Source: a virus (taxonomy: Duplodnaviria > Caudoviricetes). Taken from it: DNA of 64,000 nucleotides. Below, one piece after another: positions 707 to 53,489 of the stretch; the stretch's first letter is position 1, and each line of letters opens with the position of its first letter. Under the pieces are notes generated by a model. That model saw only the letters and a program-made list of their open reading frames with translations. It was not told the DNA's origin and made no database searches. The translations under genes were made by a program, and so were the position numbers. The stretch lies in IMG/VR virus record IMGVR_UViG_3300048502_000089, positions 1 through 64,000 of that record. One strand, 5' to 3'.

Positions 707-823
707 TCGTCGCTAGTCGATAAGGGATCTAGGATCGGTCTAGCTAGAGTGTTGCGGAGAGGATTCTTCGGGCCGATGTTCGAATCTCCCACGGAGCTTA
801 GATAAAGATTAGCTGAGAATCGA

Positions 824-847
824 TTAGCAGTCTTGCATTACTGCTAA
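824..847. promoter_or_regulatory. Operator-like palindrome overlapping the -35 of the putative early promoter
   Basis: Perfect ATTAGCAG tcttgcatta CTGCTAAT. Confidence 0.8.
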
Positions 848-860
848 TTGTCTGTAGACT
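833..860 (+). promoter_or_regulatory. Putative sigma70/HrdB-type early promoter
   Basis: TTGCAT (833-838), 16-nt spacer, TAGACT (855-860), upstream of first ORF. Confidence 0.5.
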
Positions 861-916
861 CCCGAGCGCAGCGATCCTCTAGAATCACTCCAGCGAATTG
901 AAAGCGAGCGAAGGCA

Positions 917-1474
917 ATGCAAGAATCAAGCGATTATCGGGTGCGCGCGGAGGATATGGCGTTCGCTGAGCGTATGGCGCGGGAGGATGCGACCGAGATT
1001 GACAATCTAGTCCACTTTGGCGGTTCCCCTGTAGTCGCTGGAGAGGTCGCGTGCATTGTCGATGGTTCGCAATTCTCCCCTAGTTGGCGCAGACTCGACG
1101 GCGGAGCAGCTGTATGGTCGCGCGCTATTGAAGAATTGCGCGAGGTGACACTCTGCGAAGTCTACAGCGAGACACTTGACCGCGCGGTCGACGCCATCGA
1201 CTGCCAAGGAGGCTCGCTCTATTGGGAGGATGGATGTTTGTTTCTCAGCGGCCCCGATGCCGAGGACCCCGCGCTGAGCGAAGATACCGAACCATTCGCG
1301 CAGACGTTCAATCTGTCGATCAGTATGGGTAATGACGCGATGCGCACGCCGATGGGAATTGCGAGCGCGCTGCGCAGCGCAGCGCGGCGCATAGAGGATT
1401 ATGAGCCTCTGAGCGGGACGATTCTCGATGCTAATGGTAACACAGTCGGTGAGTGGTCTTTCGACCGTAGCTAG
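917..1474 (+). CDS. Hypothetical acidic protein (185 aa)
   Basis: ORF preceded by GAAAGCGAG at 900-908; D/E-rich. Confidence 0.8.
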   Translation: MQESSDYRVRAEDMAFAERMAREDATEIDNLVHFGGSPVVAGEVACIVDGSQFSPSWRRLDGGAAVWSRAIEELREVTLCEVYSETLDRAVDAIDCQGGSLYWEDGCLFLSGPDAEDPALSEDTEPFAQTFNLSISMGNDAMRTPMGIASALRSAARRIEDYEPLSGTILDANGNTVGEWSFDRS

Positions 1475-1480
1475 CCTCTC

Positions 1481-1529
1481 AGCGCGTGCTAGGTGTGATT
1501 CTGAGCGGTTCGATTCCGCTCGCGCGCTA
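1481..1529 (+). ncRNA. tRNA-like acceptor/T-arm minihelix element (candidate processing signal)
   Basis: AGCGCGT(1481-87)/GCGCGCT(1522-28) 7-bp stem stacked on GAGCGG-TTCGATT-CCGCTC T-arm; 15-nt linker in place of the D and anticodon arms. Confidence 0.5.
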
Positions 1530-1571
1530 TATCCCGCCGTTAGAGTGCGGGCGAAGTGAAAGCGAGACACA

Positions 1572-2567
1572 ATGCGAGATAGGGCCGACGTTACAATGAC
1601 GCGCCAAACCGCTGAGGGCTTTCTAGTCGCGCACGTTCGGCGCGAGCATGGACACTTTAGCGTGACCGGCGATCTTTACACATCGCGCCGTGCATACGAT
1701 CTAGGGTCGGAGTCTGCAATTATCGCGTGCGGATGTCTGCACGCGGAGATTCTGCGCGCGTTCCCTGAGCTTGCGCAGATTGTCGCACTGCACCTATCCG
1801 ATGTCACTACGGGCGAACCGATGCACGCTGAGAGTAATGCGAGCTATTTCTACTTGGGCGCATATTCGCTCGGATCGTGGCGGGACGATTACGGATACGC
1901 TCAGCGCGCTGGATTAAGCGCGTCTGATTATGCGCGCAAGCTAGCGGCCGCCGCGCTGAGAATCGAGCCCGATGACTTCCCGGCCGAGCTGCACGCGCTA
2001 GCGGTCAAGATTGGCACCTATGCGCCGGATACAATGGCGCGGGAGGATGCAGAGCAAACATTCCGCGATGCATTCTCAGTATTTGTCGATGCTCAGCGCG
2101 AGCGTTGGCAGAATGAAGCGCGCGACGCTAATGCGTGGATCGACGCGCACGCTACGCCAGACGTTAGCGATCCGGCCGACGTTGCAAGCGGCGAGACATA
2201 CGCTCAGACGTTCGACGCCGGCCTAAGCGTGCGCGCGAAGCTGACCGGTGAGACCGCCGATAGCATCGGTGGCCATTATCAGTACCGCGTAACCGTTAGC
2301 ACGGTTGGTCAACATTACCGCGGTACCTTTACAGGCTCGGCCGCGGATTATGACGACGGACGGATAGACGCGCGGCAAGCTGCGCTAGGTGTGCTAAGCG
2401 ATCTTTGCCTCTACCGGGACCGCGACGCCGACGATCTAGCGGCCGATTATGGTCTAACACAATCTCCGCATGATCGCGGAGTCTTGCAGGCTATGCGTCG
2501 GCAGTGTCGCGCGTATGAGCGTATGAGCGATGCCATCGACGCCAACGCGCACCTATTCGGGCAATGA
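1572..2567 (+). CDS. Hypothetical protein (331 aa)
   Basis: Long ORF; GAAAGCGAG 5 nt upstream of ATG. Confidence 0.85.
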   Translation: MRDRADVTMTRQTAEGFLVAHVRREHGHFSVTGDLYTSRRAYDLGSESAIIACGCLHAEILRAFPELAQIVALHLSDVTTGEPMHAESNASYFYLGAYSLGSWRDDYGYAQRAGLSASDYARKLAAAALRIEPDDFPAELHALAVKIGTYAPDTMAREDAEQTFRDAFSVFVDAQRERWQNEARDANAWIDAHATPDVSDPADVASGETYAQTFDAGLSVRAKLTGETADSIGGHYQYRVTVSTVGQHYRGTFTGSAADYDDGRIDARQAALGVLSDLCLYRDRDADDLAADYGLTQSPHDRGVLQAMRRQCRAYERMSDAIDANAHLFGQ

Positions 2568-2725
2568 GTAAGCGAGCAAAGATCCTCCGGGCAATCCGTG
2601 CGACGTTCTATGCGGTCGGATACGCGGAGCATCATAGACGGTAGGGCTCAGTCGCGCGTGCGCTCACGGATCGGCGCGCGGCCCTGTAGTGGCAATCAAT
2701 CGACCCATAAGGAAAGCGAGACATA

Positions 2726-2977
2726 ATGCGCAAGACCCTAGCTTCAATCATCGCCACGGTAGCGTTCGCAGCTTTGCCGGCGTCGGCGTCGGCACTATTC
2801 CCGACAATGTGCGCGCAGCTTCGCAGCGAACTACCGGGTGCGACGATCCTAGCCTGTAACAATCGCACCGGGCAATTTGTCGGCGTGCTAGCGAGCGCTC
2901 AGCTAGTCCACGGGCGCATACGATGGGCGGGTCGCTTTACCGTCCACTATTGGAGCGGCCCTAGCTACAGGCGTTAG
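2726..2977 (+). CDS. Small secreted/exported protein (83 aa)
   Basis: MRKTLASIIATVAFAALPASASA signal-peptide pattern; two Cys; GAAAGCGAG upstream. Confidence 0.75.
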   Translation: MRKTLASIIATVAFAALPASASALFPTMCAQLRSELPGATILACNNRTGQFVGVLASAQLVHGRIRWAGRFTVHYWSGPSYRR

Positions 2978-3071
2978 CGGGGCGAACGCTAGAGCCCGTG
3001 TCAATCGGTGCGGACTTTAGCGCTCGCGCACTAGCGAGACCCATACCCCTAAGAATCGAAAGCGAGACATA

Positions 3072-3197
3072 ATGCGAGACCGTAAGAACGACTACCGCCG
3101 CACCGATAAGACGCGCTCTAGCGCCGCGCGTGCCACGACGTTGGAGCGTAAAGCGATCCGAGCAATCAAATACGCGAATCCGAGCCCGGCGCGATGA
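3072..3197 (+). CDS. Small basic protein (41 aa; not in ORF track)
   Basis: GAAAGCGAG-acata-ATG; MRDRKNDYRRTDKTRSSAARATTLERKAIRAIKYANPSPAR. Confidence 0.65.
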   Translation: MRDRKNDYRRTDKTRSSAARATTLERKAIRAIKYANPSPAR

Positions 3198-3310
3198 CAT
3201 ACAAAGTGCGGACGGTCGCTGGGATCCTGCTAACCACTACTGACCCGCTGCGAGCTGCGATGTGGCGCAAGCGTGGAGCGAAGGTGCTAGCGATCCCTGC
3301 GAACCGATAG
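3194..3310 (+). CDS. Small protein (38 aa; not in ORF track)
   Basis: ATGA overlap with upstream stop; MTYKVRTVAGILLTTTDPLRAAMWRKRGAKVLAIPANR. Confidence 0.55.
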   Translation: MTYKVRTVAGILLTTTDPLRAAMWRKRGAKVLAIPANR

Positions 3311-3408
3311 CGGATCGGATACGGGCGCACGTTAGAGCGATCTAGCGCGCGTCTGTACCCGCTCGACTACCGACCGGGAACAACCCCTAGTGAAAGCGAG
3401 AACAAACG

Positions 3409-4686
3409 ATGCGAACCTATGCCGATGCTACGGAATACCTCGCGGCCGGGCGATCCAAAGATGATCGACCCCTAGCCAATAACACTCGCTTGCAATCCCG
3501 CGGCGATGACATCGCGGTTAGATTGCACGCTACCGATGTAGTTACATACCGTCCCGATGGCACTGTGGCGCTCAGCGCTGGCGCTGGCCATTGGCATACC
3601 AAAACAACGATGGATCGTATTCGCACGTACAGCGGCGCGCGACTCTACAGCGAGAGAAACGTTTGGTATGTCCGCACTGAGCCCGATGCAAACGACTCGG
3701 AGCTGGCGCTTATATGGCGCTCGATTCCCACGCCATATGAAGCTAACGATCCCGGTGGAGAGCCCGTCAAGTCTGCCGACGGTTGCATGGTTGGCACTGT
3801 CACATATGAGATTGAGCATCGGCGCGACCTACTGAGCAAATACGATATTGAGTGCGACGGTATCGAGCCCGATGAACCATACGAACATGAGAGCGGATAT
3901 TTCGTTGGCTATCGTGTCCATGATGTCAACGTCGCTACCCGCTACCGGACAGACTCATATGCAGGCTATGGACATAAAGTCGAGCCCGTAGCGGACGCCG
4001 ACGAAACGCGCGAAGTACAGTGCCAGCATTGCGCCGCATTCGACGCGCTGCATCGCGCTTGGGATCTCGCCTACAATGGCGAATCTTGGGGTCGCAATTC
4101 CGGCCGTGGCTACCGTCGAATGACTGAGCTATTGGCAGAGTACGGATCGCGCGAAGCATGGAAAGCCGCGGCGCTCGCGGACTTTCGAGCTGTGAGATCC
4201 AACCGTCAATCTGTGCGCGAATGGGAAGTTCGCAACCGTGTGCTATTCGTTGACGATATCACGGTCAATGCAGACGGATACGCTCAGCGGCCGGACGCTC
4301 GCAGGATGGCTAAGGATGTGCGCAAGCGGGCGAAACTCGACCGGGAGGTTGCACGTATTGATAAGTTCGTTGATCATTGCATCGCCAAAGTCGCGGCAGG
4401 CAAGGTGCCGATGCCGAGCAATGGCGATTGCTGGTTTTGCTTGGGGATGGACGATGGCGGTTCTCCCGATCACTTGGCCGCTCATATGCGCGAGCGGTAC
4501 GTTGTACCGTCCATGCTTATCAACGCGCTCAGATTCGCCGGATATCCAGACGCAGGGATCGGGATATCCCTTGGGATGGCACCGGACGCAACTCACCTTA
4601 GCTTTGGATTCTCTCCCGATGGCGAGACCGTAAAGCGCGCATTGCGCCGCTACCTTATGCGGCGCTTGCTAAGTGACTCAATCTAA
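3409..4686 (+). CDS. Hypothetical phage protein (425 aa) with Cys/His motifs
   Basis: Long ORF, GAAAGCGAG upstream; CxxC motifs (CQHC, CWFC). Confidence 0.85.
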   Translation: MRTYADATEYLAAGRSKDDRPLANNTRLQSRGDDIAVRLHATDVVTYRPDGTVALSAGAGHWHTKTTMDRIRTYSGARLYSERNVWYVRTEPDANDSELALIWRSIPTPYEANDPGGEPVKSADGCMVGTVTYEIEHRRDLLSKYDIECDGIEPDEPYEHESGYFVGYRVHDVNVATRYRTDSYAGYGHKVEPVADADETREVQCQHCAAFDALHRAWDLAYNGESWGRNSGRGYRRMTELLAEYGSREAWKAAALADFRAVRSNRQSVREWEVRNRVLFVDDITVNADGYAQRPDARRMAKDVRKRAKLDREVARIDKFVDHCIAKVAAGKVPMPSNGDCWFCLGMDDGGSPDHLAAHMRERYVVPSMLINALRFAGYPDAGIGISLGMAPDATHLSFGFSPDGETVKRALRRYLMRRLLSDSI

Positions 4687-4711
4687 ACCAACCCCAAGCG
4701 AAAGCGAGGCA

Positions 4712-5023
4712 ATGATGGATCTAGCAGACTGCTATATCGGCCAGCGCGTAGAGCTTGCGCCGCATATGGATCTATGGATGCGCGGCGCGCGCTATGGGTC
4801 AGTCGTGGAGATACTAACCGGGCGCGAGCTAGGCTTTGTGCGCGTGCGCGTGGACGCTATCGACCGCGTAAAGGCTTTCCGCGCAGACGATCTAACCGAT
4901 GTTTATGACACGGCGCACAATCGGCGCGCAGCGGCGCTACACCGCGGGGACATCACGCCAGAGGAATTGGAAACGTGGACCGATCCTACCCCAAGCGAAA
5001 GCGAGGCAAACGATGGCCGCTAA
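4712..5023 (+). CDS. Hypothetical protein, possible SH3/KOW-like beta fold (103 aa)
   Basis: Start moved to ATG after GAAAGCGAG (4700-08); IGQRVEL...GSVVEI pattern. Confidence 0.7.
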   Translation: MMDLADCYIGQRVELAPHMDLWMRGARYGSVVEILTGRELGFVRVRVDAIDRVKAFRADDLTDVYDTAHNRRAAALHRGDITPEELETWTDPTPSESEANDGR

Positions 5024-5291
5024 CCCTAAGTGTGATGCGCAACGCTGCAAAGACTCGCAAGGTCGCGCCGGCCGGATAGACGCTATCCGCGGAATGACGC
5101 AAGCTGATCTAGACCGCGGCGAAACTGGCGAATACAGCGCCGACGTTGGCACATGCTCCGACGATCTAGTGACAATCTGGCACGGGCTCGATACGCCTGC
5201 CATCGCGTGTGGCAAGCACGCGTGCTATAGCCCAGTAGCAGTATTCCGCGGGCATCGCACCCGGATAAACGAAAGCGAGCCCGCGCGATGA
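5013..5291 (+). CDS. Hypothetical Cys-rich protein (92 aa)
   Basis: ATG 7 nt after GAAAGCGAG (4997-5005). Confidence 0.7.
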   Translation: MAANPKCDAQRCKDSQGRAGRIDAIRGMTQADLDRGETGEYSADVGTCSDDLVTIWHGLDTPAIACGKHACYSPVAVFRGHRTRINESEPAR

Positions 5292-5431
5292 CTACCTCTC
5301 AGCTATGGGCAATTGCAGCGCTCGCGCGAGTAGCTGCGCCAGAACCGCGCTCAGCGCGGCCCGTCAAGTCACCTAAGACTGTGCGAATCGTCCGGCCGAA
5401 CTACATAGCAGAATGGGAGGTTATGCGATGA
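5288..5431 (+). CDS. Small protein (47 aa; not in ORF track)
   Basis: ATG 8 nt after GAAAGCGAG (5271-79); ATGA overlaps at both ends. Confidence 0.6.
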   Translation: MTTSQLWAIAALARVAAPEPRSARPVKSPKTVRIVRPNYIAEWEVMR

Positions 5432-6033
5432 GAGAGTTCTACGTTAGCCGGCAAAGCTACTGGCACGAGGATGGCGCGTACGCGGTGGAGATTGCCCGCG
5501 AACTTGACTACAGCGGTCCCGGTGCGCTAGGCGCGAAGTATCCGGGGGAAGGTTGCGAGTATCTTGACCCGCGCGAAGCTGCGCAAGCTGCAATCAGTGT
5601 GCGCGAAGCTTGGCTAGCGGATCTAGCTGCAAAGCATGATAGCCGCGACGGAGCAATGCGGGAGGTTGCGCTAACCCTCGCAATGAATGATCTAGTCTAC
5701 CCCGTTACCGATGACGGTCTAGAGCCCGCTGAGCTGATCGAATGGGCGGATAAGCGAGCTGAGTCGATGGCGCATTGCGAGCATTGCGGACTACCGTGCG
5801 AATCGGACGGATACAGTGACTATGGCGAACCATTCTCAGCGTGTGATAGCGATTGCGCAGAGCGATACGTGGAGAGTTTGCGCGAGCCCGATTATGACGA
5901 CGCCGACGATGAAAGCTTTGCGTCGATCATCGTAGACGGCCGATGGCGCGCGATTGACGGATATGCCGATGATGGCACGCCGATCCTCTCAGAGAATCAG
6001 TTTCCTACCCCTACGGATGAAAGCGAGGCATAG
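5428..6033 (+). CDS. Acidic protein with Zn-ribbon-like CxxC motifs (201 aa)
   Basis: GGAGG SD; CEHC..C and CDSDC; D/E-rich. Confidence 0.8.
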   Translation: MREFYVSRQSYWHEDGAYAVEIARELDYSGPGALGAKYPGEGCEYLDPREAAQAAISVREAWLADLAAKHDSRDGAMREVALTLAMNDLVYPVTDDGLEPAELIEWADKRAESMAHCEHCGLPCESDGYSDYGEPFSACDSDCAERYVESLREPDYDDADDESFASIIVDGRWRAIDGYADDGTPILSENQFPTPTDESEA

Positions 6034-6546
6034 ATGACCGCAGAGACTCCCGAGGCACTACTCGCCGCGATGCAGACGCCTACCTATGACGATGATGGCA
6101 ATGAGCGCATTGATATCTGTACGTGTGGAACTTGCGGGCGCTCGTGGAATGACGCCGCGGTGTCACAATGGACGCCGACGCCTAGCGCTCGATGCCCGTT
6201 TGAGTATGAGCACGTCTACGATGACGATGCACTGTATGAACAGAGGCTAGAGCGCGGTCGCGCACAATGGGGCGATAAGTTCGATCCAAGCTCGCTTGAA
6301 GTGGCGAGTCAATTTATCCCATACTTCAATAGCGATCAGCGCGTGCGCGTGCGCACCGGCGGGCAGGAATTGACCGGGAGGATTGGCACAACTAGCGGTT
6401 GGCGTCCGTCATTCCTGCTAATGCGGCGCTCTAGCGACCGCGGATCTAGCTATCTGCTAGGCGCGGGCGATGTCATCGTCGCGGTGCAATACGGTCGCCG
6501 CTACGTGCCGGTAGCGAATCTCTACGTGCGACCGGGAGTGAACTAA
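6034..6546 (+). CDS. Hypothetical protein with N-terminal Zn ribbon (170 aa)
   Basis: CTCGTCGRSW...CPFEYEH; GAAAGCGAG upstream. Confidence 0.8.
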   Translation: MTAETPEALLAAMQTPTYDDDGNERIDICTCGTCGRSWNDAAVSQWTPTPSARCPFEYEHVYDDDALYEQRLERGRAQWGDKFDPSSLEVASQFIPYFNSDQRVRVRTGGQELTGRIGTTSGWRPSFLLMRRSSDRGSSYLLGAGDVIVAVQYGRRYVPVANLYVRPGVN

Positions 6547-6782
6547 TGGCACGCTCTGAGCTGATTGAGTTTGAGATTCTTTGGTATGCCGGCGGTCCCG
6601 AATGGGCACCGAATCGCTGCATCGGGCGCGAGCATATTCGCAAGCGCGATCTAACCGCGGCGATCACAACCGCGTGCAACATGCTGAAAGCGGGCAAAGG
6701 ATGCCACGACGGATACGCGCACGGATTCTACGTGCGGAAAGCGCCGGCACAATTGCAAACGACGCGGGAGGTAAACCGATGA
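6546..6782 (+). CDS. Hypothetical protein (78 aa)
   Basis: TAATG stop/start overlap. Confidence 0.7.
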   Translation: MARSELIEFEILWYAGGPEWAPNRCIGREHIRKRDLTAAITTACNMLKAGKGCHDGYAHGFYVRKAPAQLQTTREVNR

Positions 6783-7057
6783 AGATGGCACCGGCAGACT
6801 ACGATGCGCTGAGCGCGCTTATTAGACCATTCGACACGGCCGAGACTCGCGCCCCGTACATCGCGCGAGATATCCCGCGCGCCGATGCAGTGCAAGACTT
6901 TGACAAACGCTACCGCTGGGATCTACTTTGGTATGTACGCGCACGCAACCGGGAATTGGTAGACCCCATAATAATGTCCGGTCTGTATGACGACGCACAT
7001 ATCGACACGGCGCTGCGCAAGATCGTCCCGCCCCTACTCACTGAAAGCGAGGCATAG
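6779..7057 (+). CDS. Hypothetical protein (92 aa)
   Basis: GGGAGG SD then ATG at 6779; ATGA overlap. Confidence 0.75.
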   Translation: MKMAPADYDALSALIRPFDTAETRAPYIARDIPRADAVQDFDKRYRWDLLWYVRARNRELVDPIIMSGLYDDAHIDTALRKIVPPLLTESEA

Positions 7058-7459
7058 ATGCCGCTAGAGACTTTGCCAGACGGTACGCCACTATGGGCAG
7101 ACTTGAACGCCGAGCCCGCAATTAGTATTGAATATCTCGGCTGCATCTATAACGGCGGGGAGACTTTCGACGCCTACCATGCAGGTTTTGAGGTAACGGA
7201 TCGCAGAGCTGACGCTGACGATCCTATCGTCGACCGATTCGGGCTCGACATCGGTGCAACCGGGAATGTGCCGAACGGCGTTTGTATGTCCACGGAGTAT
7301 TTCCACGATCATCTAGTGGAGGATGACCCCGAGCGATGGAGCTGGATCGAATGGGCGGCGCTCCCCGAGCCCGTACAGAATGCGATTCTAGGTGAGGTTG
7401 AGCTACTTGAATGGGCCGGCGTACCGGAGTTCGATGAAAGCGAGGATAACGATGACTGA
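7058..7459 (+). CDS. Highly acidic protein (133 aa)
   Basis: About a quarter of residues D/E, 4 Arg, no Lys; GAAAGCGAG upstream. Confidence 0.8.
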   Translation: MPLETLPDGTPLWADLNAEPAISIEYLGCIYNGGETFDAYHAGFEVTDRRADADDPIVDRFGLDIGATGNVPNGVCMSTEYFHDHLVEDDPERWSWIEWAALPEPVQNAILGEVELLEWAGVPEFDESEDNDD

Positions 7460-7805
7460 CCTAAGTGACTGTATGGAGTTCGATCACGTCATTACCGTAC
7501 ATGAGGATGGTTCGATCACAGACGGACCGCAGAGTCTCTACGCGCCTACCCTGGAAGATGAAGAGCTGGACGATAGGCGATGGTCATTCTTTAGCGCGGG
7601 ATACAGCGGGCAGTACGGATACAGCGGCCCGATCATGCACAATTCCGAATACATCGGCGGTAGGCTAGCCGATGACATTATCGCTACCCCTGGGATCTAT
7701 GCGGCAGTCGTCGCGTATTGGACAAACGACGATCCCGACGACGATGCGGGATCGGATAGCGAAGGTTGGGCAATCGTCACTTACAACGGAGAGGTAAGTG
7801 TATGA
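7452..7805 (+). CDS. Highly acidic protein (117 aa)
   Basis: ATG 7 nt after GAAAGCGAG (7436-44); about 24 D/E, 3 Arg, no Lys. Confidence 0.8.
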   Translation: MTDLSDCMEFDHVITVHEDGSITDGPQSLYAPTLEDEELDDRRWSFFSAGYSGQYGYSGPIMHNSEYIGGRLADDIIATPGIYAAVVAYWTNDDPDDDAGSDSEGWAIVTYNGEVSV

Positions 7806-10891: not shown

Positions 10892-11112
10892 AACGACCGT
10901 GGAGACTTGAGCGCCGGCCAAAGACCTATGGTGGGATGTGGGCAATTTGTGCGACCTACTCGACTTACGAGCGCGCAGTAGAAGCTGTCAATGCTCCGCT
11001 TGGTTGGCGGTCACTATATGAGATTCAGATACCGATGTACGACTATGAGTTTCGCGTCTACCACCGATCACTCGAGCGGCTCGAACATCACGGCGGCGTG
11101 ACAAGCATATGA
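10888..11112 (+). CDS. Hypothetical protein (74 aa)
   Basis: GTGA overlap. Confidence 0.6.
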   Translation: MKRPWRLERRPKTYGGMWAICATYSTYERAVEAVNAPLGWRSLYEIQIPMYDYEFRVYHRSLERLEHHGGVTSI

Positions 11113-12152
11113 CCACAGCAGAAGTCGGCACCGAAATGCTCGACAAACTAGCCGCACTCGGAATCCCTTGCGATCTCGAGAACGTCGTCGTCGGACCACA
11201 GCTCACCCGATACGAGCTACGCCCGACGAATGGCACTCTAATGAGCAAGATCCGACGCACGGCTGATGACATCGCATTCCAACTCGGTTCTCATCCAGTA
11301 GCGGTCATCGCGCCGCTGCCAGAGCGAGCGGGATTGATCGGTGTCGAAGTCCCATCTGAGCGCCGCATCGTCAGGCTCGGTGATCTGCCGACCGCAGAAG
11401 CACCACTGACCTTCCCGCTAGGGTTCAATGTGGACGGAGATCCGATCTTCATGGATCTGGCCGCTGCACCGCATCTGCTCGTAGCCGGCGAGACCGGATC
11501 GGGAAAGTCGAGCATGATAAATGCCATGCTGTGCTCACTCCTGAGTCGCTTTGGGCTTGATGAATTGGCCCTGGTGATGATCGACCCGAAACAAGTCGAG
11601 CTAACCCCATACGACGGTGTAGCGCATCTCTTGGCGCCGGTCGCTGATACCGTCGAAACCGCGCTCGCGCGACTGACGAGCTGCGTGAAGCTGATGGATC
11701 TCCGCTACAACGTAGCTCAGACACTCGGAGTTCGATCGCTGGCTGAGCTCAATATGAAGATGGAAGAATCTGGAGACGCTCCATACCCATATGTGGTCGT
11801 GGTCGTGGACGAGCTGGCTGATCTGATGATGACGAGCAAGAAGGAATGCGAGAGCTTGATCGTGCGGCTTGCACAGAAGGCTCGAGCGGTAGGGATTCAT
11901 CTAGTGCTCGCCACACAAGCCCCGCAAGTCGCCGTATGCAGTGGAGTAGTAAAGGCAAATCTCCCATCACGTCTCTGTTTCTCGGTGTCATCGATGAGCG
12001 ATAGCCGCGTGGTGCTGGATAGGAATGGAGCCGAGAAGTTACTCGGCCGCGGCGACGGACTGGTGTCAATGAATGGCGCAAGGCCAGTGAGATTCCAGGG
12101 TGCGTACATCGACAGTGATGAGATCAAATCAATCTGCGACAGATGGAGGTGA
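11109..12152 (+). CDS. ftsK: FtsK/SpoIIIE-family DNA translocase motor domain (no TM region, no gamma domain)
   Basis: PHLLVAGETGSGKS (Walker A), IDPKQVEL, VVVVDELADLMM (Walker B), RLAQKARAVGIHLVLATQ. Confidence 0.93.
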   Translation: MTTAEVGTEMLDKLAALGIPCDLENVVVGPQLTRYELRPTNGTLMSKIRRTADDIAFQLGSHPVAVIAPLPERAGLIGVEVPSERRIVRLGDLPTAEAPLTFPLGFNVDGDPIFMDLAAAPHLLVAGETGSGKSSMINAMLCSLLSRFGLDELALVMIDPKQVELTPYDGVAHLLAPVADTVETALARLTSCVKLMDLRYNVAQTLGVRSLAELNMKMEESGDAPYPYVVVVVDELADLMMTSKKECESLIVRLAQKARAVGIHLVLATQAPQVAVCSGVVKANLPSRLCFSVSSMSDSRVVLDRNGAEKLLGRGDGLVSMNGARPVRFQGAYIDSDEIKSICDRWR

Positions 12153-12155
12153 GAG

Positions 12156-12410
12156 ATGGAGCATGACACGGCGTATCCAGAAGTAGGGTCAGTGTGGGAA
12201 CGTACAGTTGCTTATGAGACCGGCGACGGGCAGAAATTCCCGCTACCTGAAAGTCGTTATGAGCGCTTCCGTGTCGAAGTAGTTGTGCCAGGAGATCGCC
12301 TCGGCCGAGAGATTCGTGGCATTCTTGAAATTGAGGGGAAAGTCTCTGCAACGTACTCGACTACACAAGAGAATTTCTGGAGTCAATGGCAGCCGGTGCT
12401 CAAGTCTTGA
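12156..12410 (+). CDS. Hypothetical protein (84 aa)
   Basis: GGAGG SD; in operon. Confidence 0.7.
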   Translation: MEHDTAYPEVGSVWERTVAYETGDGQKFPLPESRYERFRVEVVVPGDRLGREIRGILEIEGKVSATYSTTQENFWSQWQPVLKS

Positions 12411-12502
12411 GGAAACGCATTCAGAACCCAATCTCAGGCCGCATCCATGAAATTGAAACTGGAGATAAGACAATCGAAGTGAGTCAGAATGGAGGTAACA
12501 AA

Positions 12503-12727
12503 GTGGAACCAGAAAGACCTACCCCACTAGCAATGCAGAGTTCATTCACAATCCTCGAGCGCCGGCAGACACTTATTGCGATCGCTGATGAAGTGGGCAT
12601 CACGACCGTCTTTGTCGCTATAGCGATTGGCCTTAGCCAAGCTGCAGGAGCTACCCATGCGCCACTTTGGGCAATTCTCCTAGCTGGTGGCCTCGGCGTT
12701 CTCACAGGGAAGCCGACCAAGAAATGA
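12503..12727 (+). CDS. Small two-TM membrane protein
   Basis: GGAGG then GTG at 12503; two hydrophobic stretches. Confidence 0.65.
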   Translation: MEPERPTPLAMQSSFTILERRQTLIAIADEVGITTVFVAIAIGLSQAAGATHAPLWAILLAGGLGVLTGKPTKK

Positions 12728-12933
12728 GCATCGTAATTGGATGCACATACTCCGATTGCGGTGAGGAAGCCCTGATTGGCATTGAAGGCTATTGGTCGCC
12801 GGCAAAGCCGCTGGATGGCAGCAATGCAGCGATCCTAATCGAGCTGCCAGAAGACTGGACGATCGGATACGTCGGGCACGATTCAGTAATCCGCTGCCCG
12901 TACCATTCTCTACGTGCGCTCGCAGGTTCATAA
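12724..12933 (+). CDS. Small Cys/His protein (69 aa)
   Basis: ATGA overlap; CTYSDC...CPYH. Confidence 0.65.
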   Translation: MSIVIGCTYSDCGEEALIGIEGYWSPAKPLDGSNAAILIELPEDWTIGYVGHDSVIRCPYHSLRALAGS

Positions 12934-13254
12934 ATGGGCGATAGCTACGAGGTCTACATCGATGTCGTCCATCATCACAAGCACGATGATGGCGAGGGAA
13001 GGAAACTCTCCCGATGCTGGAGATACGCCAACACCGGCGACCCTGAGCAGATGGTCGCAAATGCGCTCCGTGAGTTCGCCGCCGAGCTGCGTCCAGAAGA
13101 AGGAGATATGCGCAGTGACTTCAGCATCTTCGAAGCGCTCGACAAGATCCGCGCAGATCACGTCATGGATAAGCTCCATCGCCGCACAGTGATCCTAACT
13201 CTCGACCGTGTAGCCACAGAGTTAGGGCTCGAGTGGTACGGAGTGCGATCATGA
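12934..13254 (+). CDS. Hypothetical protein (106 aa)
   Basis: Abuts upstream stop. Confidence 0.7.
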   Translation: MGDSYEVYIDVVHHHKHDDGEGRKLSRCWRYANTGDPEQMVANALREFAAELRPEEGDMRSDFSIFEALDKIRADHVMDKLHRRTVILTLDRVATELGLEWYGVRS

Positions 13255-13330
13255 GTCGCTTGGATGAAGGAAAGTTCATGACTTCGATGAACAATGCTCC
13301 GGCCAAATTCCCTGTGGGAGATTTTTGGGC

Positions 13331-14392
13331 ATGAGAAAAGCCACAGGCACGATTTTCCTACGTGAAGGCACTCGCGGAAGCGTGTGGTACATGCGTCTGC
13401 ATCTACGGGATGGTTCAAGGACGAAGCGACGTATTGGTGATCTCGAGGATTTCACACGCGAACAGGCCCAAGAGAAGCTGGAAGAAGCACTGAAGAGGTT
13501 GAATGCTCCTGTAAGCCAAGACCCTACTTTCTCCGTGGCTGCCCAGGAGTATCTCGATTACTGTGAGGATCGACTGAGGCAGACGACGATGCGGACCTAC
13601 CGCGGGATCGTCAGGTATTTCGACGCTACCTACGGCGCCTTCACTCTTTCTGATCTCGCAGAAAGAAGCGAGCAATACTATCATTTTGATGATCTTGATA
13701 ATCAGCATCGTGTCGTCCTCGCCGGCATCTACGAGTTCGCGCGTCGAGTCCGCAAATATAGTGGGCCAGACCCCACGAAGAATCTCCAGCGCAAGCGCAA
13801 GATACCTCCTGCGCCGATCGAGGTCTACTCCCCAGACGAGATCATTCGCTTAGCCGAAGCTGCGCACAATTACCAAGACAGTGTGCTCTTTGTCTGTGCC
13901 GGTTTCTCCGGGCTACGTCTGAGTGAACTACGTGGCCTGTGCTGGCGTGATGTCGACTTCCTCAAGAGCTCGATCCATGTGCGCCGTGGCTACACAGATG
14001 AGAATTGCTTTGCGCCACCTAAGAGCGGGCGAGAGAGATCAGTACCGATGATCCCACAGCTTTCTTCTGTGCTCCAGCAGCTTTGGCTCCGCGACCACCA
14101 TACGGGCCTAGAGGATCTCGTCTTCTGTGACGACTTTGGTGGTGTGCTCAGCAGCTCTTTACTTTACCGCCGTTTCCAAGCTGCAGCAAAGCGAGCTGGA
14201 CTACGACGGTTGCGTTTCCATGATCTCCGTCACTCGTGTATCACAATGATGGTACAAATCTTCCCACTGTCCGACGTGCAAGTGTACGCTGGCCATGCGA
14301 ACATCCAAACTACTATGAAGTACGTCCACTTCCTGCCTCACACGGATGCGGCCGAGAAGCTAGGTAGGTTGGTGAGCGGTGAAAATCACTAA
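13331..14392 (+). CDS. int: Tyrosine recombinase / phage integrase
   Basis: SGLRLSEL (R), PPKSG (K), FHDLRHS (HxxR), AGHANIQTTMKY (H, Y); N-terminal arm-binding-like domain. Confidence 0.93.
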   Translation: MRKATGTIFLREGTRGSVWYMRLHLRDGSRTKRRIGDLEDFTREQAQEKLEEALKRLNAPVSQDPTFSVAAQEYLDYCEDRLRQTTMRTYRGIVRYFDATYGAFTLSDLAERSEQYYHFDDLDNQHRVVLAGIYEFARRVRKYSGPDPTKNLQRKRKIPPAPIEVYSPDEIIRLAEAAHNYQDSVLFVCAGFSGLRLSELRGLCWRDVDFLKSSIHVRRGYTDENCFAPPKSGRERSVPMIPQLSSVLQQLWLRDHHTGLEDLVFCDDFGGVLSSSLLYRRFQAAAKRAGLRRLRFHDLRHSCITMMVQIFPLSDVQVYAGHANIQTTMKYVHFLPHTDAAEKLGRLVSGENH

Positions 14393-32694: not shown

Positions 32695-33798
32695 TCAATT
32701 TCCCGCAAGCATCGCATTGAGAATCACTGCAGCGAGCGCCGGCTCTGCATCAATGCGCTCGCGCAAACCACTCATCCCTTGCACCTTGTCCTTGTCATCA
32801 CCGAGGATGCGATACCAGGAACTCTTCGCGCCGGTCTTCTCAGCGATCGGTGGTCGCCCAGTCCTAATCGCTACACCACCATCCTCATCGAAGAACGTTG
32901 CGGCATCAAGCAGCTCGAATAGAGTGTCAAACTTGAAGGTATTCAAGTCAAGACGCATCCGAGCTACACGGAATGGGCGGCAAACACGGCTCTTATTCAC
33001 ACGCACCACCACTTCAATCCCATCTGCTTCCTTCTGTCCTGCTGGCCCGGTGCCAACTTCAACAGCGATCTTCTCATCGGTCTCGAGATAGCCGCCCTTG
33101 GGGTGGTAGTAGAGCCAAGATCCCTTGCGGAAGTGAAGGCTCATCGATGACCGGAACTCAAGCGACTTGCCACCGAGCGCGAATTCCTGCTTGGTTGTCT
33201 GGTCACGAGAAGAGTGATCGATAATGACCAGTGCATTCTCGTCCTTATCGAGAGAGTTGTGAATGCGTTTGATCGCTCGCTTCCACGCTCGGGCGTCCAT
33301 CGCGCGAGTCCAGTCCTCAGCTTCGTTCGCCAACTCATCTACACAGACGGCTGCCGATGCACTATCGATCACATGGACATGGCATGATTTCAGGAGTGTC
33401 TCCATCTCGCGGGCGATGTCCTCGATGATCGTAACTTGCTCGAGCAGCATTCTCTTGGTATCCACGCCGAGATTCGCAGCGTGCTTCGCGTCCCAAATCT
33501 TCTCGACATTCCAGTAAGCCGCCTCAAGCCCATTCGGAAATGACTCTGACCGTAAAGCCTGTGCCGCTGCAATGATGATATATGCAACATGCGTCTTCCC
33601 GGTGCTTGGGTCTCCCCAAAGACGAGTTATCCTGCCAAGTGGAATACCACCGGAAGTGATTCGCATGAGCGACGGTGATGGCAAAGGGATTCGATCAACT
33701 GGTGCCTCCTCATCGCCGCGACCAATTGCGTCTATGCCACGGCGTTCACGGATTGCAGCTAGGTCATCATCCAAAGTGGAAACGTCTACGGGACTCAT
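32695..33798 (-). CDS. recA: RecA/UvsX-like recombinase
   Basis: GGIPLGRITRLWGDPSTGKT, VIDS, GGKSLEF..S motifs. Confidence 0.88.
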   Translation of the reverse strand: MSPVDVSTLDDDLAAIRERRGIDAIGRGDEEAPVDRIPLPSPSLMRITSGGIPLGRITRLWGDPSTGKTHVAYIIIAAAQALRSESFPNGLEAAYWNVEKIWDAKHAANLGVDTKRMLLEQVTIIEDIAREMETLLKSCHVHVIDSASAAVCVDELANEAEDWTRAMDARAWKRAIKRIHNSLDKDENALVIIDHSSRDQTTKQEFALGGKSLEFRSSMSLHFRKGSWLYYHPKGGYLETDEKIAVEVGTGPAGQKEADGIEVVVRVNKSRVCRPFRVARMRLDLNTFKFDTLFELLDAATFFDEDGGVAIRTGRPPIAEKTGAKSSWYRILGDDKDKVQGMSGLRERIDAEPALAAVILNAMLAGN

Positions 33799-36700
33799 AC
33801 GGCCTCCTGCAGTTGGTTCGAGCGTTGCTGCTCTATGAATTCATCCATTGCCATCGCGTTGGTCGCTATGACACCACCTCGATCATCTTTGCGCCCACGC
33901 AGCAGGATCATCTTTTCGTCTATGTGTGACGATGTAATAAGTCCCTGCATCGAAGACCACGCATCTGGAAAGAGAGTGATACGCCACGAATCAAGTTCGA
34001 GCGAGACAGTAAGGAAAGCCATCTCTTGCCCAGACTGTCGACCACGCTTCACTGTCGTCTTCTTGATCTCGGTGATGCTTCCTCCAATGATCACATCTGC
34101 GCCATCCTCGAGTTCTTCCACTTCCTGCTCGGTGTAGACGTTCTCCCAGATCAACGGTGCGTCAGCACCTAGCAATCCTCCCGGCTCGAGTGCCACACCT
34201 AGCAGCTCGAGCTCAGCCTTCGCACGCTCAATCGGCTCCCACATACCGCGCATCCCAAAGCAGTCTAGGACGCCGGCATTGACTAGCTTCTCTCGAGCAC
34301 CCTTGTTGACCTTGCTGTACTTGCGGGATGACCTAGTCTCGAAGTCCTCGTAAGAGAGGAATGGTCGGTCAGCGATGATCTGCGCTCCTGCGGCTGGACC
34401 AACTCCCTTGACACTGGCAAGACCATATCGCAGAGCATTGATCTCATGTTCAACTGTGAACCCTGTCTTCGAGATATTGATGTCGGGCGGCAGCACTTTT
34501 ACATCGAAGTGTCGTGACTCGCGCGTGGCTGCCAAAGCCAATTCGCTATCAGTCGTCAAGAGAGCTGAATAGAAATGTGTCGCGTAGTAGCACTTGAGCC
34601 ACGCATCTTGGTACGCCTGAATAGCATACCCAGTCGCGTGCGCCCTATTGAAAGAATTATGTGACACGATGCCGTTCGCAATGAAGTTATGTTCATCACT
34701 GGCCATCGACACGTCGAATACCTCTTCTTCACCAACATACTCGATACTAACAATCGCATCAAGATCCGTTGGCAATCCGCGCGACCAACGGACATGCCTC
34801 TCACCCTTTGCGTAATCAAACGCCTTGTGGTGAGAGTTACAAAGGTGCAACAAATTGCTAGCCGTGTGATATCGAGCATATTCACCACCCATCTGCTCAA
34901 GTGAAGCTACGTGTGCGAACTCAAGTGAATGCTTGCTCCCATCACTACATTGGCCACAATATTCACAGTAGCCACCCGATCGTTCTGCAACCTCTTCCTT
35001 GGCCACACGCAGCAGTTCAGTACGCCCATCGAGCCATGCTGGATTCTCCCATCCACTTGGCACACCTAAACCGCCGTCTTGACCTGTATACCTTTTCCCG
35101 ATCGCGCGCTCCGTAGTGACTCCAACCATCTCCTTGGGCGCCTCTTGACCAACCACAACAAGGCAATCCCCTACTCGGAGATCGCAAACAGTGTGGTATC
35201 CATCGTCAGTAAGGAGACGATGATTAGATGTAGCTCGGAGCAAACGGCCAGCAGTAGTCTTGATCTCATAAACAGCGCGTACCCCATTGCTCCATACACG
35301 AATAGCACGAGATGGACGGACGCGGCCATCAGCATCCATCGCAAGCAATGTGACCCCGCGCGAGCGCAGCTTCTTGCCGACCGAAGTCTTCGAGACCCAC
35401 GCCGCTGCCAAATCACGCAAAGTAGTCTCTTGTTCGCAGTGTGGGCCGGATGCACCACGAATAACCACCGTATCCCCTGACAAACAGTACCCAGTAAATG
35501 GGACGATGTCTGCCCATAGACGCTCAGCTACTTCCGCACCAAACTTCTCCGTGGCCGCTGCAACGAATTCACCCTCACGTAGAGCAAGCCGGCGTCGGCC
35601 TTCCTGACTATGCGCACGATTGAGTTTGTCGATCTCTTTGCGCACATCGTCTGCTTGCCCTGCGCTGTATCCCAAAATGACTTGGAAAATCCCCATCACA
35701 CTCTCTTGAAACGGCATCACTCCATAGGTTTCGCCAAGAAGATCCTCAAGTTCCTTTGGCACAGACCATTCCTCTTCCCCATTCTTACGCTTGGCGTATG
35801 ACCACGGAGCGCCACCACCGATCGGTCCTGGGCGGTAGAGAGCATTAGCTGCAGCGAGGTCGATGAGATTCTCAGGGCGAAGCTGGCGCAGGAATGAAGT
35901 GATGTTCGAGCTGCCGAACTGATTGACTCCAAGAGTGTGTCCATCTTGGAATACACGCATCACTTTCGGATCCACGTCGTATGGATCGGACAGAGCTGAA
36001 AGTGAATCAAGATCAATCTCTTCTCCAGTAACTTCACGGATAGAGTCAATCGCCATCGCTTGCCGAGCAATCCCTGCCAACCCAAGCACATCGATCTTGA
36101 GGAATCCATAGTCGTCACAGATGGAGATCAATGGAGTCTCTGACCATGCTGTGCGATACCCAGGCTCGTCCTCACTCGGTCGCACCACCGGAAGATAGTC
36201 AGTTAGCTTACCAGGGACAATGACGACACCGCCAGCGTGCTTTGACATCCTCGAAACGAAAGAGTCACCTTTGTTTTCAAGTCGTACTGCGTGCTTCCAT
36301 ACTTCTGGGTAATCATTCGCCCATGCGTCGAGAGTCGGCATCCGCAGACGCATTTCCTCAAGATCACGATCTTGTACGGGATCGATGAGAGCAACCACAT
36401 CCTTGGTCCGCTTATAGTCAACACCACCAATAATTCGAGAGACATCATTGATAGCTGCTCGAGGCTGGTAGGTGGAGTAAGACACCACATCTGTCACTGA
36501 CTCGCGGCCATGCTTACGGACCAGATATTCCTTGCACTCAAGTCGCCGGTTGTAGCCTTCGATCTTCACTGACTCGAAATCGAGATCGATGTCTGGGATA
36601 CCCTTGCGCCCTGGATTCATGAACCGCTCGAACTTGAGCTTGTGCGCGATCGGGTCGACACCTGTAATACCCGAGAGATAACAGACAAGCGATCCTGCTG

Positions 36701-53100: not shown

Positions 53101-53489
53101 GATGATACTCCCTTATCTTGCTTCTTTCTGACTGTTGACCAAAGTTCATTTGTCTCTCTACGGAAAGTGGAATGAGCTTCATCACATTGCCCAATATGTT
53201 GATCGAGTTTTTGCCCAAGTTCTTTGATCTGTATTTCAATACGAGCCAACGTAGCCGTGTCAACTGTACTCGCTTTCACGGCTACAACATTACTTGTTGA
53301 TTGTGACTTACTCAGATCATCAATTTTCTTTACAGCCGAATCAATTTTCTCGTCTCGCAGCACTTGTCGCTTCCACCATTTGTAAAGAGCGACAAGACCA
53401 CCACCGCCAACGGCAGCCATAATTGCTACCAACGCATCAATCAATGTTGTAATACTGCTTGAGTCGTTGACTGATTGTGTCAGTAGCAT
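53097..53489 (-). CDS. N-terminal TM plus coiled-coil protein (holin/spanin-like architecture)
   Basis: LVAIMAAVGGGGLVALYKWWKR. Confidence 0.7.
   Translation of the reverse strand: MLLTQSVNDSSSITTLIDALVAIMAAVGGGGLVALYKWWKRQVLRDEKIDSAVKKIDDLSKSQSTSNVVAVKASTVDTATLARIEIQIKELGQKLDQHIGQCDEAHSTFRRETNELWSTVRKKQDKGVSS

Follow-up and report, generated by a model that had tools for sequence, protein, structure and literature searches.

Why do 11 genes at one end of a soil phage genome start behind the same nine nucleotides, and what could read them? The window analyzed here comprises 64,000 nucleotides, the first 64 kb of the 88,278-bp IMG/VR record IMGVR_UViG_3300048502_000089, which derives from an uncultured soil phage. 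On the + strand of the window, the 9-mer GAAAGCGAG (hereafter, the motif) occurs in 11 exact copies between positions 900 and 7444, each 3 to 8 nt before an ATG, exactly as an earlier note on this sequence had described. The expectation from 100 dinucleotide-preserving shuffles of the window was far lower: the mean count was 0.76, the largest was 3, and 12 copies were reached in 0 of the 100 shuffles. Taking the position, conservation, and predicted ribosome pairing of the motif together, we consider it probable that the 9-mer is a start-associated sequence (SAS) serving as a bulged Shine-Dalgarno (SD) site, on which an additional sequence-specific constraint acts.

Position, extent, and context of the motif

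All 11 copies of the cluster lie on the + strand, before ATGs that begin open reading frames (ORFs) of 41 to 425 aa. Copies 1 to 3 (900..908, 1558..1566, and 2712..2720) stand 8, 5, and 5 nt before the ATGs at 917, 1572, and 2726, the starts of genes 917-1474 (185 aa), 1572-2567 (331 aa), and 2726-2977 (83 aa). Copy 4 (3058..3066), 5 nt before the ATG at 3072, leads the gene for a basic protein of 41 aa (3072-3197), and copy 5 (3392..3400), 8 nt before the ATG at 3409, leads a 425-aa gene (3409-4686) whose homologues carry Pfam PF23790. Copy 6 (4700..4708) is followed after 3 or 6 nt by ATGs at 4712 and 4715, in a gene that ends at 5023. The remaining five copies are located within the 3' end of the preceding gene: copy 7 (4997..5005) 7 nt before the ATG of gene 5013-5291, copy 8 (5271..5279) 8 nt before that of the small gene 5288-5431, copy 9 (6019..6027) 6 nt before that of gene 6034-6546, copy 10 (7043..7051) 6 nt before that of gene 7058-7459, and copy 11 (7436..7444) 7 nt before that of gene 7452-7805. 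Each of these five is read GAA-AGC-GAG, giving ESE-containing C termini to the genes that end at 5023, 5291, 6033, 7057, and 7459; at copy 9, the ESE is followed by a stop codon that abuts the ATG at 6034. The five ESE peptides described in the earlier note are real.

The start codon after the motif was ATG in 11 of 11 cases, and the median spacer of 6 nt, like the individual spacers, falls within the range of canonical GGAG-to-start spacers. No paralogy was found among the 11 downstream proteins, and none of the 11 was assigned to a Pfam family. Gene calls from the Joint Genome Institute (JGI) matched 7 of the 11 motif starts; the other 4 were missed or shortened, since gene callers give the motif no score as a ribosome site. 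Independent support for the starts comes from full-length homologues of the 425-aa protein, which align from its first residues, and from orthologues of the 41-aa and 47-aa (5288-5431) ORFs in other phages. Conservation among the sites covers exactly nine positions, with information content dropping to background at both edges save for a weak CA just downstream. Longer identity, of ~19 to 22 nt, was shared by neighboring sites only (4700/4997, 6019/7043, and 2712/3058), and the flanks were unrelated between these groups.

A C-rich hexamer accompanies part of the sites. CCCC(T/A)A occurs eight times in the 6.9-kb block, and six of these hexamers, all on the + strand, sit 2 to 6 nt upstream of a motif: at 3046..3051 (6 nt before copy 4), at 3384..3389, 4692..4697, and 4989..4994 (2 nt before copies 5, 6, and 7, respectively), at 6008..6013 (5 nt before copy 9), and at 7031..7036 (6 nt before copy 10). 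Thus, 6 of the 11 motif sites have the hexamer, partly within coding sequence. Since such upstream space amounts to only ~165 nt, this clustering is far above chance, which makes roughly half of the sites bipartite. The hexamer is also present in the terminal repeat of the genome.

The cluster coincides with a compositionally distinct block. Observed/expected CpG ranged from 1.41 to 1.54 over positions 750..7500 (+ strand), compared to 1.0 ± 0.1, with a maximum of 1.2, in the rest of the genome. The proposal that the motif marks a distinct class of genes confined to the left end is borne out by this coincidence; that these genes might also be the first to be expressed is a proposal drawn from their position only. 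The motif had been noticed nowhere else, and indeed no further + strand copy exists in the 88,278-bp genome, but 2 reverse copies accompany the 11 forward ones, one of them in the window (53269..53277, - strand); this copy lies inside coding sequence, is not start associated, and is probably a chance occurrence. Genes outside the arm had been said to use ordinary sites, which they do: the other genes of the genome use GAAAGGAG, AGAAAGG, AAGGAGGT, or GGAGGT (~90 genes with canonical sites). However, four genes inside the 900-7805 block, with starts at 5428, 6546, 6779, and ~7802, also use GGGAGG-type sites.

The second reverse copy (85453-85461, - strand) lies outside the window, directly against the ATG of a right-end gene of 184 aa, and is a 12th start-adjacent copy. 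In the same region (85453-85472), the copy is preceded by a one-mismatch copy (A for C) and by GGAG. Near 82992 (- strand), a one-mismatch copy stands just ahead of a canonical AGAAAGGAG site.

Conservation of the motif in a diverged phage

A contig from another sample, L244, shares the left-arm synteny of the studied phage (PF23790 protein, FtsK-like protein, integrase, and JAB-domain protein), with 72% identity in FtsK and ~50 to 57% in the early orthologues. L244 contains 7 exact copies of the motif where 0.34 would be expected; all fall in the first 7.3 kb of the contig, and 5 of them precede an ATG. At three orthologous starts, those of the 425-aa, 41-aa, and 47/25-aa genes, the 9-mer was identical at 27 of 27 positions, compared to 46 to 53% identity in the 45-nt upstream flanks. 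The remaining L244 copies belong to non-orthologous genes, and the 41-aa gene together with its motif occupies a different position in the gene order. Over the 18 copies in the two phages (11 here and 7 in L244), no substitution was observed at any position, including the C. The complete identity at orthologous starts with diverged flanks indicates that the 9-mer is under purifying selection in the two phages and is not an artefact of recent copying.

Other relatives start their genes differently. The motif is absent from G001 and G002, phages whose capsid proteins are 83% and 69% identical to that of the studied phage and which have no homologues of its first 10 kb, and it is also absent from L245. 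Where the 41-aa gene has an orthologous start, the same slot is occupied by AGGAG (G001) or GAAGGGG (L245), and orthologous starts of the 425-aa gene in L141 to L143 have GGAG or GGAGG there. Given these canonical sites at orthologous starts, the motif occupies the SD slot. Repeated start motifs of another sequence are found in several of these phages: G001 has one containing GAGACGA, L244 has both motif types, once in tandem, and phages with a homologue of the 425-aa gene have hyper-repeated start motifs with canonical cores, GACTGGAGGTCA in L136/L137 (7 to 9 copies) and AAGGAGACAACA in L138.

This diversity of start motifs would fit the idea that the 9-mer has no special function, being an odd ribosome site that was spread by duplication or gene conversion and in which the C hitch-hiked, perhaps favored as part of a CpG. 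Each related phage favors a start motif of its own (GACTGGAGGTCA in L136, AAGGAGACAACA in L138, and GAGACGA in G001), and the C does create a CpG in a block where observed/expected CpG is ~1.5. However, the 9-mer is unchanged at three orthologous starts of proteins only ~50 to 57% identical, between near-random flanks, and has accumulated 0 substitutions in 18 copies from two phages. On this evidence, we regard the absence of a special function as improbable.

The occupation of the SD slot bears on a different proposal, that the motif acts at the DNA level as an asymmetric double-stranded site for a protein (a repressor, in the manner of a stoperator) or as part of a promoter. Such a role would be compatible with the single orientation of the copies, their location at gene junctions, the temperate nature of the phage (integrase at 13325-14392), and the presence of CCCC(T/A)A in the terminal repeat as well. 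In contrast, it is at odds with the tight distance to the ATG, the resemblance to the complement of the anti-SD sequence, the canonical SD sites that fill this slot where the starts are orthologous, and the five copies within coding sequence. Moreover, promoter-like sites were not enriched (10 found versus 10.9 expected), and the motif is limited to a stretch of 6.5 kb instead of being genome-wide. A DNA-level site is thus very improbable.

A third proposal draws on the variability of the block: the shared start sequence would serve recombination at cassette boundaries, or be kept by it, so that early cassettes arrive with a working ribosome site. The block is hypervariable, in that G001 and G002 have no homologues of the first 10 kb and one tested gene has no outside relatives. 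Neighboring sites share ~19 to 22 nt, the 41-aa gene and its motif are relocated together in L244, and all five coding-embedded copies are in the same frame. However, efficient homologous recombination needs more than nine bases, most pairwise comparisons of sites show identity ending abruptly with the 9-mer, and recombination would leave the precise SD slot and the SD-like spacing unexplained. We therefore consider cassette-boundary homology unlikely. A comparable arrangement, for which such a role has been proposed, is the promoter-early stem-loop cassette, reportedly described in T4-type phages by Arbiol et al. in 2010. As here, small hypervariable early genes are flanked there by repeated regulatory sequences and show signs of having been shuffled as cassettes; those units consist of a promoter and a stem-loop and span tens of bases, whereas neither promoter nor hairpin accompanies the motif.

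Two of the small genes in the block deserve separate mention. The 41-aa ORF (3072-3197) encodes a very basic protein (pI 11.5) with 57 to 61% identity to proteins in the early blocks of L244, G001, and L245. This is a genuine small gene, liable to be overlooked by gene callers, and it is not specific to motif-bearing phages; a look-up of the protein in the ESM Atlas gave no usable match. The C-terminal half of the 47-aa ORF (5288-5431) is kept in L244, where the ORF has 25 aa, and in G001 (82% over 17 aa), and its stop overlaps the next start as ATGA in all three phages. For a 133-aa protein of the block, relatives were found only in the phage's own assemblies.

Early blocks of the relatives also share compositional features. 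CpG excess was observed in the non-homologous early blocks of G001 (50-54 kb, 1.44 to 1.55) and L244 (1-6000). GAGAC showed a strong strand bias, with 13 occurrences versus 1 of its complement in 900-7805 and 33 versus 2 in L244 (1-8000); GAGAC is part of start motifs in L244 and G001.

Searches for further carriers of the motif returned few candidates. No relatives of the 425-aa protein were found in IMG/VR, and the FtsK-like protein found only relatives of 33 to 44% identity there, with 0 to 1 motif copies. A scan of IMG/VR for the bipartite pattern gave 99 single matches and 0 multi-copy records, approximately the level of chance. Likewise, a scan of JGI metagenomes for a 19-nt pattern (18 fixed bases) common to the studied genome (G000) and L244 gave 11 single matches, none of them related, and ~300 kb of other phage and integrative-element loci contained 0 to 1 motif copies. 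Among unrelated contigs in IMG/VR, a few contain the 9-mer in small clusters before ATGs, usually followed by G. These clusters suggest that the ribosomes of several hosts can probably use the 9-mer. In one of these contigs, G003 (IMG/VR 3300031998_000077, a 65-kb viral contig), four copies of the 9-mer plus G stand 6 to 7 nt before ATGs at 14.6 to 18.7 kb, and the motif genes stand among genes with ordinary sites.

Predicted pairing with 16S rRNA and candidate second readers

The closest cellular homologues of the FtsK-like protein are found in Patulibacter, Solirubrobacterales, and Gaiellaceae (~50% identity, full length). On account of these homologues, the host probably belongs to the Thermoleophilia, as a member of the Solirubrobacterales. 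In three genomes of this order, 16S rRNA terminates in ...GGAUCACCUCCUUUCUA; the tail CCUCCUUUCU is the actual 3' end of 16S rRNA in the clade of the probable host.

In the mechanism that we favor, the 9-mer would be a ribosome-binding element for a class of left-end genes. GAAAG in the mRNA would pair with the 3'-terminal CUUUC of 16S rRNA and GAG(G) with the (C)CUC core, leaving the C unpaired as a single-base bulge, and the ribosome would thus read the 9-mer as a good SD site. Indeed, an uninterrupted SD core (AGGAG or AAGGA) is absent from the motif, being split by the C, and pairing is predicted only via a one-base bulge. With the host-clade tail CCUCCUUUCU, the 9-mer is predicted to form 5 + 3 bp around the bulged C at -7.7 kcal/mol, and the 9-mer with a trailing G, as found at five sites, is predicted to reach -11.2 kcal/mol. 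For reference, the predicted energies of the uninterrupted 8-mer GAAAGGAG and of GGAG are -11.5 and -5.2 kcal/mol, respectively. Over the 18-nt upstream regions, motif genes had a median predicted energy of -10.3 kcal/mol, at least equal to that of the other genes (-8.05) and far better than that of random sequence (-3.5); GAAAGG was 22-fold enriched before starts in the genome, and since the start choices for the other genes were SD guided, both their energies and this enrichment are inflated. The earlier proposal of a motif in SD position with a bulged-C duplex is accordingly sound in its predicted energetics. Given these pairing energies, the spacing, the host-clade tail, and the canonical sites in orthologous slots, a ribosome-binding role is the best reading of the motif.

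Could the motif simply be the normal ribosome site of the host, or a way of escaping an RNase that cuts at GGAG? The earlier note had named the former as what would refute a special class and had offered the latter as one explanation. Small clusters of the 9-mer before ATGs in a few unrelated IMG/VR contigs, such as the four copies within 4 kb of G003, would be in line with an ordinary host site. However, in five Solirubrobacterales genomes (15.5 Mb), a clade chosen from FtsK homology, the arrangement motif-N4-8-ATG was matched 6 times, compared to 3 in a reversed control, whereas the canonical 8-mer in the same sequence and arrangement was matched 37 times, compared to 10 in the control. The motif is therefore not the ordinary ribosome site of the candidate host clade, and ~90 other genes of the phage itself use canonical sites. 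Nor does escape from a GGAG-specific RNase fare well: on the sense strand, GGAG shows no avoidance within the block (33 copies versus 31.8 expected, a ratio of 1.04), four genes there use sites of the GGGAGG type, and no RegB homologue was found in the genome. AGGAG was observed once in the block versus 6 expected, a difference that was not significant after multiple testing. We judge this pair of explanations the least probable of those considered, close to negligible.

Ribosome pairing by itself is insufficient to account for the invariance of the motif. Variants with A or T at the bulge have equal predicted energy, yet they occur only 1 to 3 times in the genome, compared to 11 times for C. 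This invariance beyond pairing points to a second sequence-specific reader or constraint that would act on the exact 9-mer. One candidate for such a reader is an RNA-binding or RNA-cutting protein of phage or host origin, for which the 9-mer, perhaps together with CCCC(T/A)A, would be the RNA operator of a translational regulon; by binding or cutting the mRNA, the protein would switch the whole left-end gene set together, as T4 RegA or RegB does. This possibility is compatible with the bulged SD site, whose second reader the protein would be. It would account for the absolute invariance of the motif, including a base not expected to pair, for its retention across phages on partly different genes within one block, and for the significant bipartite arrangement with CCCC(T/A)A, and the same idea has been weighed in the literature on SAS. 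Conversely, no RegA, RegB, or S21 homologue is encoded, the left-arm proteins have no recognizable RNA-binding domain, the motif lies neither in conserved RNA structure nor in unusually accessible sequence, and no gene was found that is exclusive to the two motif-bearing phages. We regard an RNA operator as a tentative proposal, somewhat doubtful as it stands. With similarly limited confidence, we suggest that a phage- or host-encoded factor might recognize the 9-mer with its unpaired C and control translation or mRNA decay of the left-end block as a unit; the phage RNA-binding factor named in the earlier note is a possible reader.

No homologue of RegB (PF10715) or RegA (PF01818) was detected at an E value of ≤1 in the whole genome, and no recognizable RNA-binding domain was present among the left-arm proteins. 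No conserved RNA structure and no Rfam family were found at the motif, the accessibility of which equaled that of shuffled flanks, and the number of terminator-like sites was equal to that in shuffles. The only Rfam match nearby, to the tRNA/tmRNA clan and below threshold (17 bits, E value of 0.47), was at positions 1504-1558, directly upstream of copy 2.

Several points weigh against a bulged SD site with an additional constraint. The four genes with canonical sites are packed gaplessly among the motif genes, so the motif class does not coincide with a transcription unit. The comparison draws on a single independent carrier of the motif, L244, represented by 20 kb. The duplex energies are nearest-neighbor predictions, the bulged SD helix being predicted for the motif sequence, and the comparison with other genes carries the SD-guided start choices noted above. 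As for a second reader, the searches for RegB, RegA, and a bS21 homologue in the genome yielded no candidate; the complement of the motif, which an antisense partner would carry, was found in no non-coding region, exact or with one mismatch; and pairing of the motif with the tRNA-like, leader, and terminal-repeat regions did not exceed that with random windows. Even with these points, we consider the bulged SD site under additional constraint to be the probable explanation.

The phage genome and comparison with known start-associated sequences

The window belongs to a complete genome. Both ends of the record carry an identical cDNA/PCR adapter, inside of which lies a direct terminal repeat of ~400 bp (26-423 matches 87850-88253, 99%). 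Two further JGI samples contain the phage at 99.96 to 99.98% identity, with one contig spanning the joined ends, and in the independent contig L139 the right end is joined to the left via one copy of the repeat. Given the terminal repeats, the recurrence of the phage in other samples, and the end-spanning contig, the sequence is a complete linear phage genome and no assembly artefact; the IMG/VR label for the record is "linear, 94%." Genes run rightward from 900 to ~18.5 kb and leftward in the remainder.

The gene content is that of a temperate siphovirus. Tape-measure, Dit-like, major tail, and major head proteins were identified on the other arm, away from the motif. Also encoded are a tyrosine integrase (13325-14392), the FtsK-like ATPase, and a JAB-domain protein, as are a DnaE-type polymerase, DnaB, primase, a protein resembling RecA, ThyX, RNase H, and an Rv2525c-like lysin. 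The nearest cultured phages, mostly actinophages, are only ~30% identical in capsid protein (Gordonia phages) or DnaE-type polymerase. In a database of cultured phages, neither the DNA of the block nor a tail protein had a match, and a search of GTDB genomes for prophages with the capsid protein returned nothing.

Other features of the genome were observed alongside. The FtsK-like ATPase adjoins the tyrosine integrase (11109-14392) and is 60 to 69% identical to proteins of ArdC-FtsK-integrase integrative elements on metagenome contigs L246 to L248, and ~50% identical to the chromosomal FtsK of Solirubrobacterales; these similarities suggest an FtsK/integrase module common to the phage and integrative elements. 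Four further FtsK homologues were considered as phage relatives and rejected, their loci being ArdC-FtsK-integrase integrative elements. The DnaE-type polymerase ORF (33795-37880, 1361 aa) contains an insert with matches to HNH endonucleases at approximately residues 942 to 1045, which suggests that an intein or a homing endonuclease is nested there. Ahead of the first gene, the non-coding leader (424-900) contains four or five copies of GGATTCTC-like repeats and a palindrome, TTAGCAG-N9/10-CTGCTAA (~820-850), that overlaps a promoter-like pair, TTGCAT ... TAGACT; a TAGAAT hexamer stands ~25 nt ahead of motif copy 1.

Regulatory sequences of other phages offer partial parallels to the motif. 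In cluster A mycobacteriophages, stoperators are 13-bp asymmetric repressor sites (mentioned in PMC3203893). The motif resembles them in being asymmetric, in holding one orientation relative to transcription, and in lying at gene junctions of a temperate actinophage. Stoperators, however, are genome-wide and not locked to start codons, whereas the motif is restricted to 6.5 kb with SD spacing, and the orthologous starts of motif genes carry SD sites instead. In T4, early-gene ribosome sites are the targets of RegB, which cuts at GGAG, or are bound by the repressor RegA (for a review, see PMC3014915). A common sequence at the ribosome sites of an early class could likewise permit joint post-transcriptional control here. 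Unlike T4, the phage has no RegA or RegB homologue, and GGAG, the target of RegB, is exactly what the motif interrupts.

The closest parallels are the SAS of actinobacterial phages, and the earlier comparison to cluster K was the right one. The SAS of cluster K Mycobacterium phages, GGGATAGGAGCCC (Pope et al. 2011, PMC3203893), has been described as hyper-conserved and positioned at the ribosome-binding site, and its role was still unexplained in 2024 and 2025 (PMC11373665 and PMC12699233). Both elements are short and asymmetric, with 11 to 19 near-identical copies in one orientation, 3 to 9 nt before start codons in ribosome-site position and with a strong preference for ATG. Both are restricted to non-structural genes of unrelated families and are conserved among relatives beyond the need for 16S pairing. 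The cluster K SAS is rare in the host genome; for the motif, 6 matches before an ATG were counted in the 15.5 Mb from the clade of the probable host. The two differ in sequence, which shows no similarity, and in length, with 9 nt here versus 13; the canonical AGGAG core of cluster K is absent here, interrupted by the invariant C. In a subset of cluster K sites, the extended SAS includes 17-bp imperfect inverted repeats with a SigA-like promoter, whereas no such repeats were found here; instead, the motif is accompanied upstream by a C-rich element of 6 nt, whose distance varies and which also occurs inside coding sequence. Copies are confined here to one 6.5-kb block by the genome end, and the probable host is a member of the Thermoleophilia, not Mycobacterium.

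In the cluster EF phages of Microbacterium, the SAS, GGGAAAGGACCCC (Jacobs-Sera et al. 2020, PMC7302621), is alike in its ~10 hyper-conserved copies in ribosome-site position, in its use of the GAAAGG part of the anti-SD complement, and in a weakly conserved upstream element. The phages also have similar replication gene sets (DnaE-type polymerase, primase, RecA-like protein, and ThyX). In contrast to the motif, the SD core is uninterrupted in cluster EF, and for the phage studied here no similarity to cultured phages was detected beyond ~30% identity (capsid protein and polymerase).

Together, these comparisons identify the motif as a variant of the actinobacterial-phage SAS, to which this case adds an interrupted core and the evidence from orthologous starts. 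The described SAS contain a perfect SD core, so conservation for ribosome pairing is inseparable from any other conservation. Here, the core is broken by a base that is not expected to pair and that is nevertheless invariant in 18 copies from two diverged phages, which offers an experimental handle. With this phage, SAS-like elements also reach phages whose host is probably a member of the Thermoleophilia, and the motif class becomes tied to a compositionally distinct, CpG-rich block by the genome end, a feature seen again in relatives with other start motifs. If the motif proved to be an RNA operator, then SAS in general would be translational regulons, and this phage would be a natural case in which binding of the factor is separable at a single base from 16S rRNA pairing.

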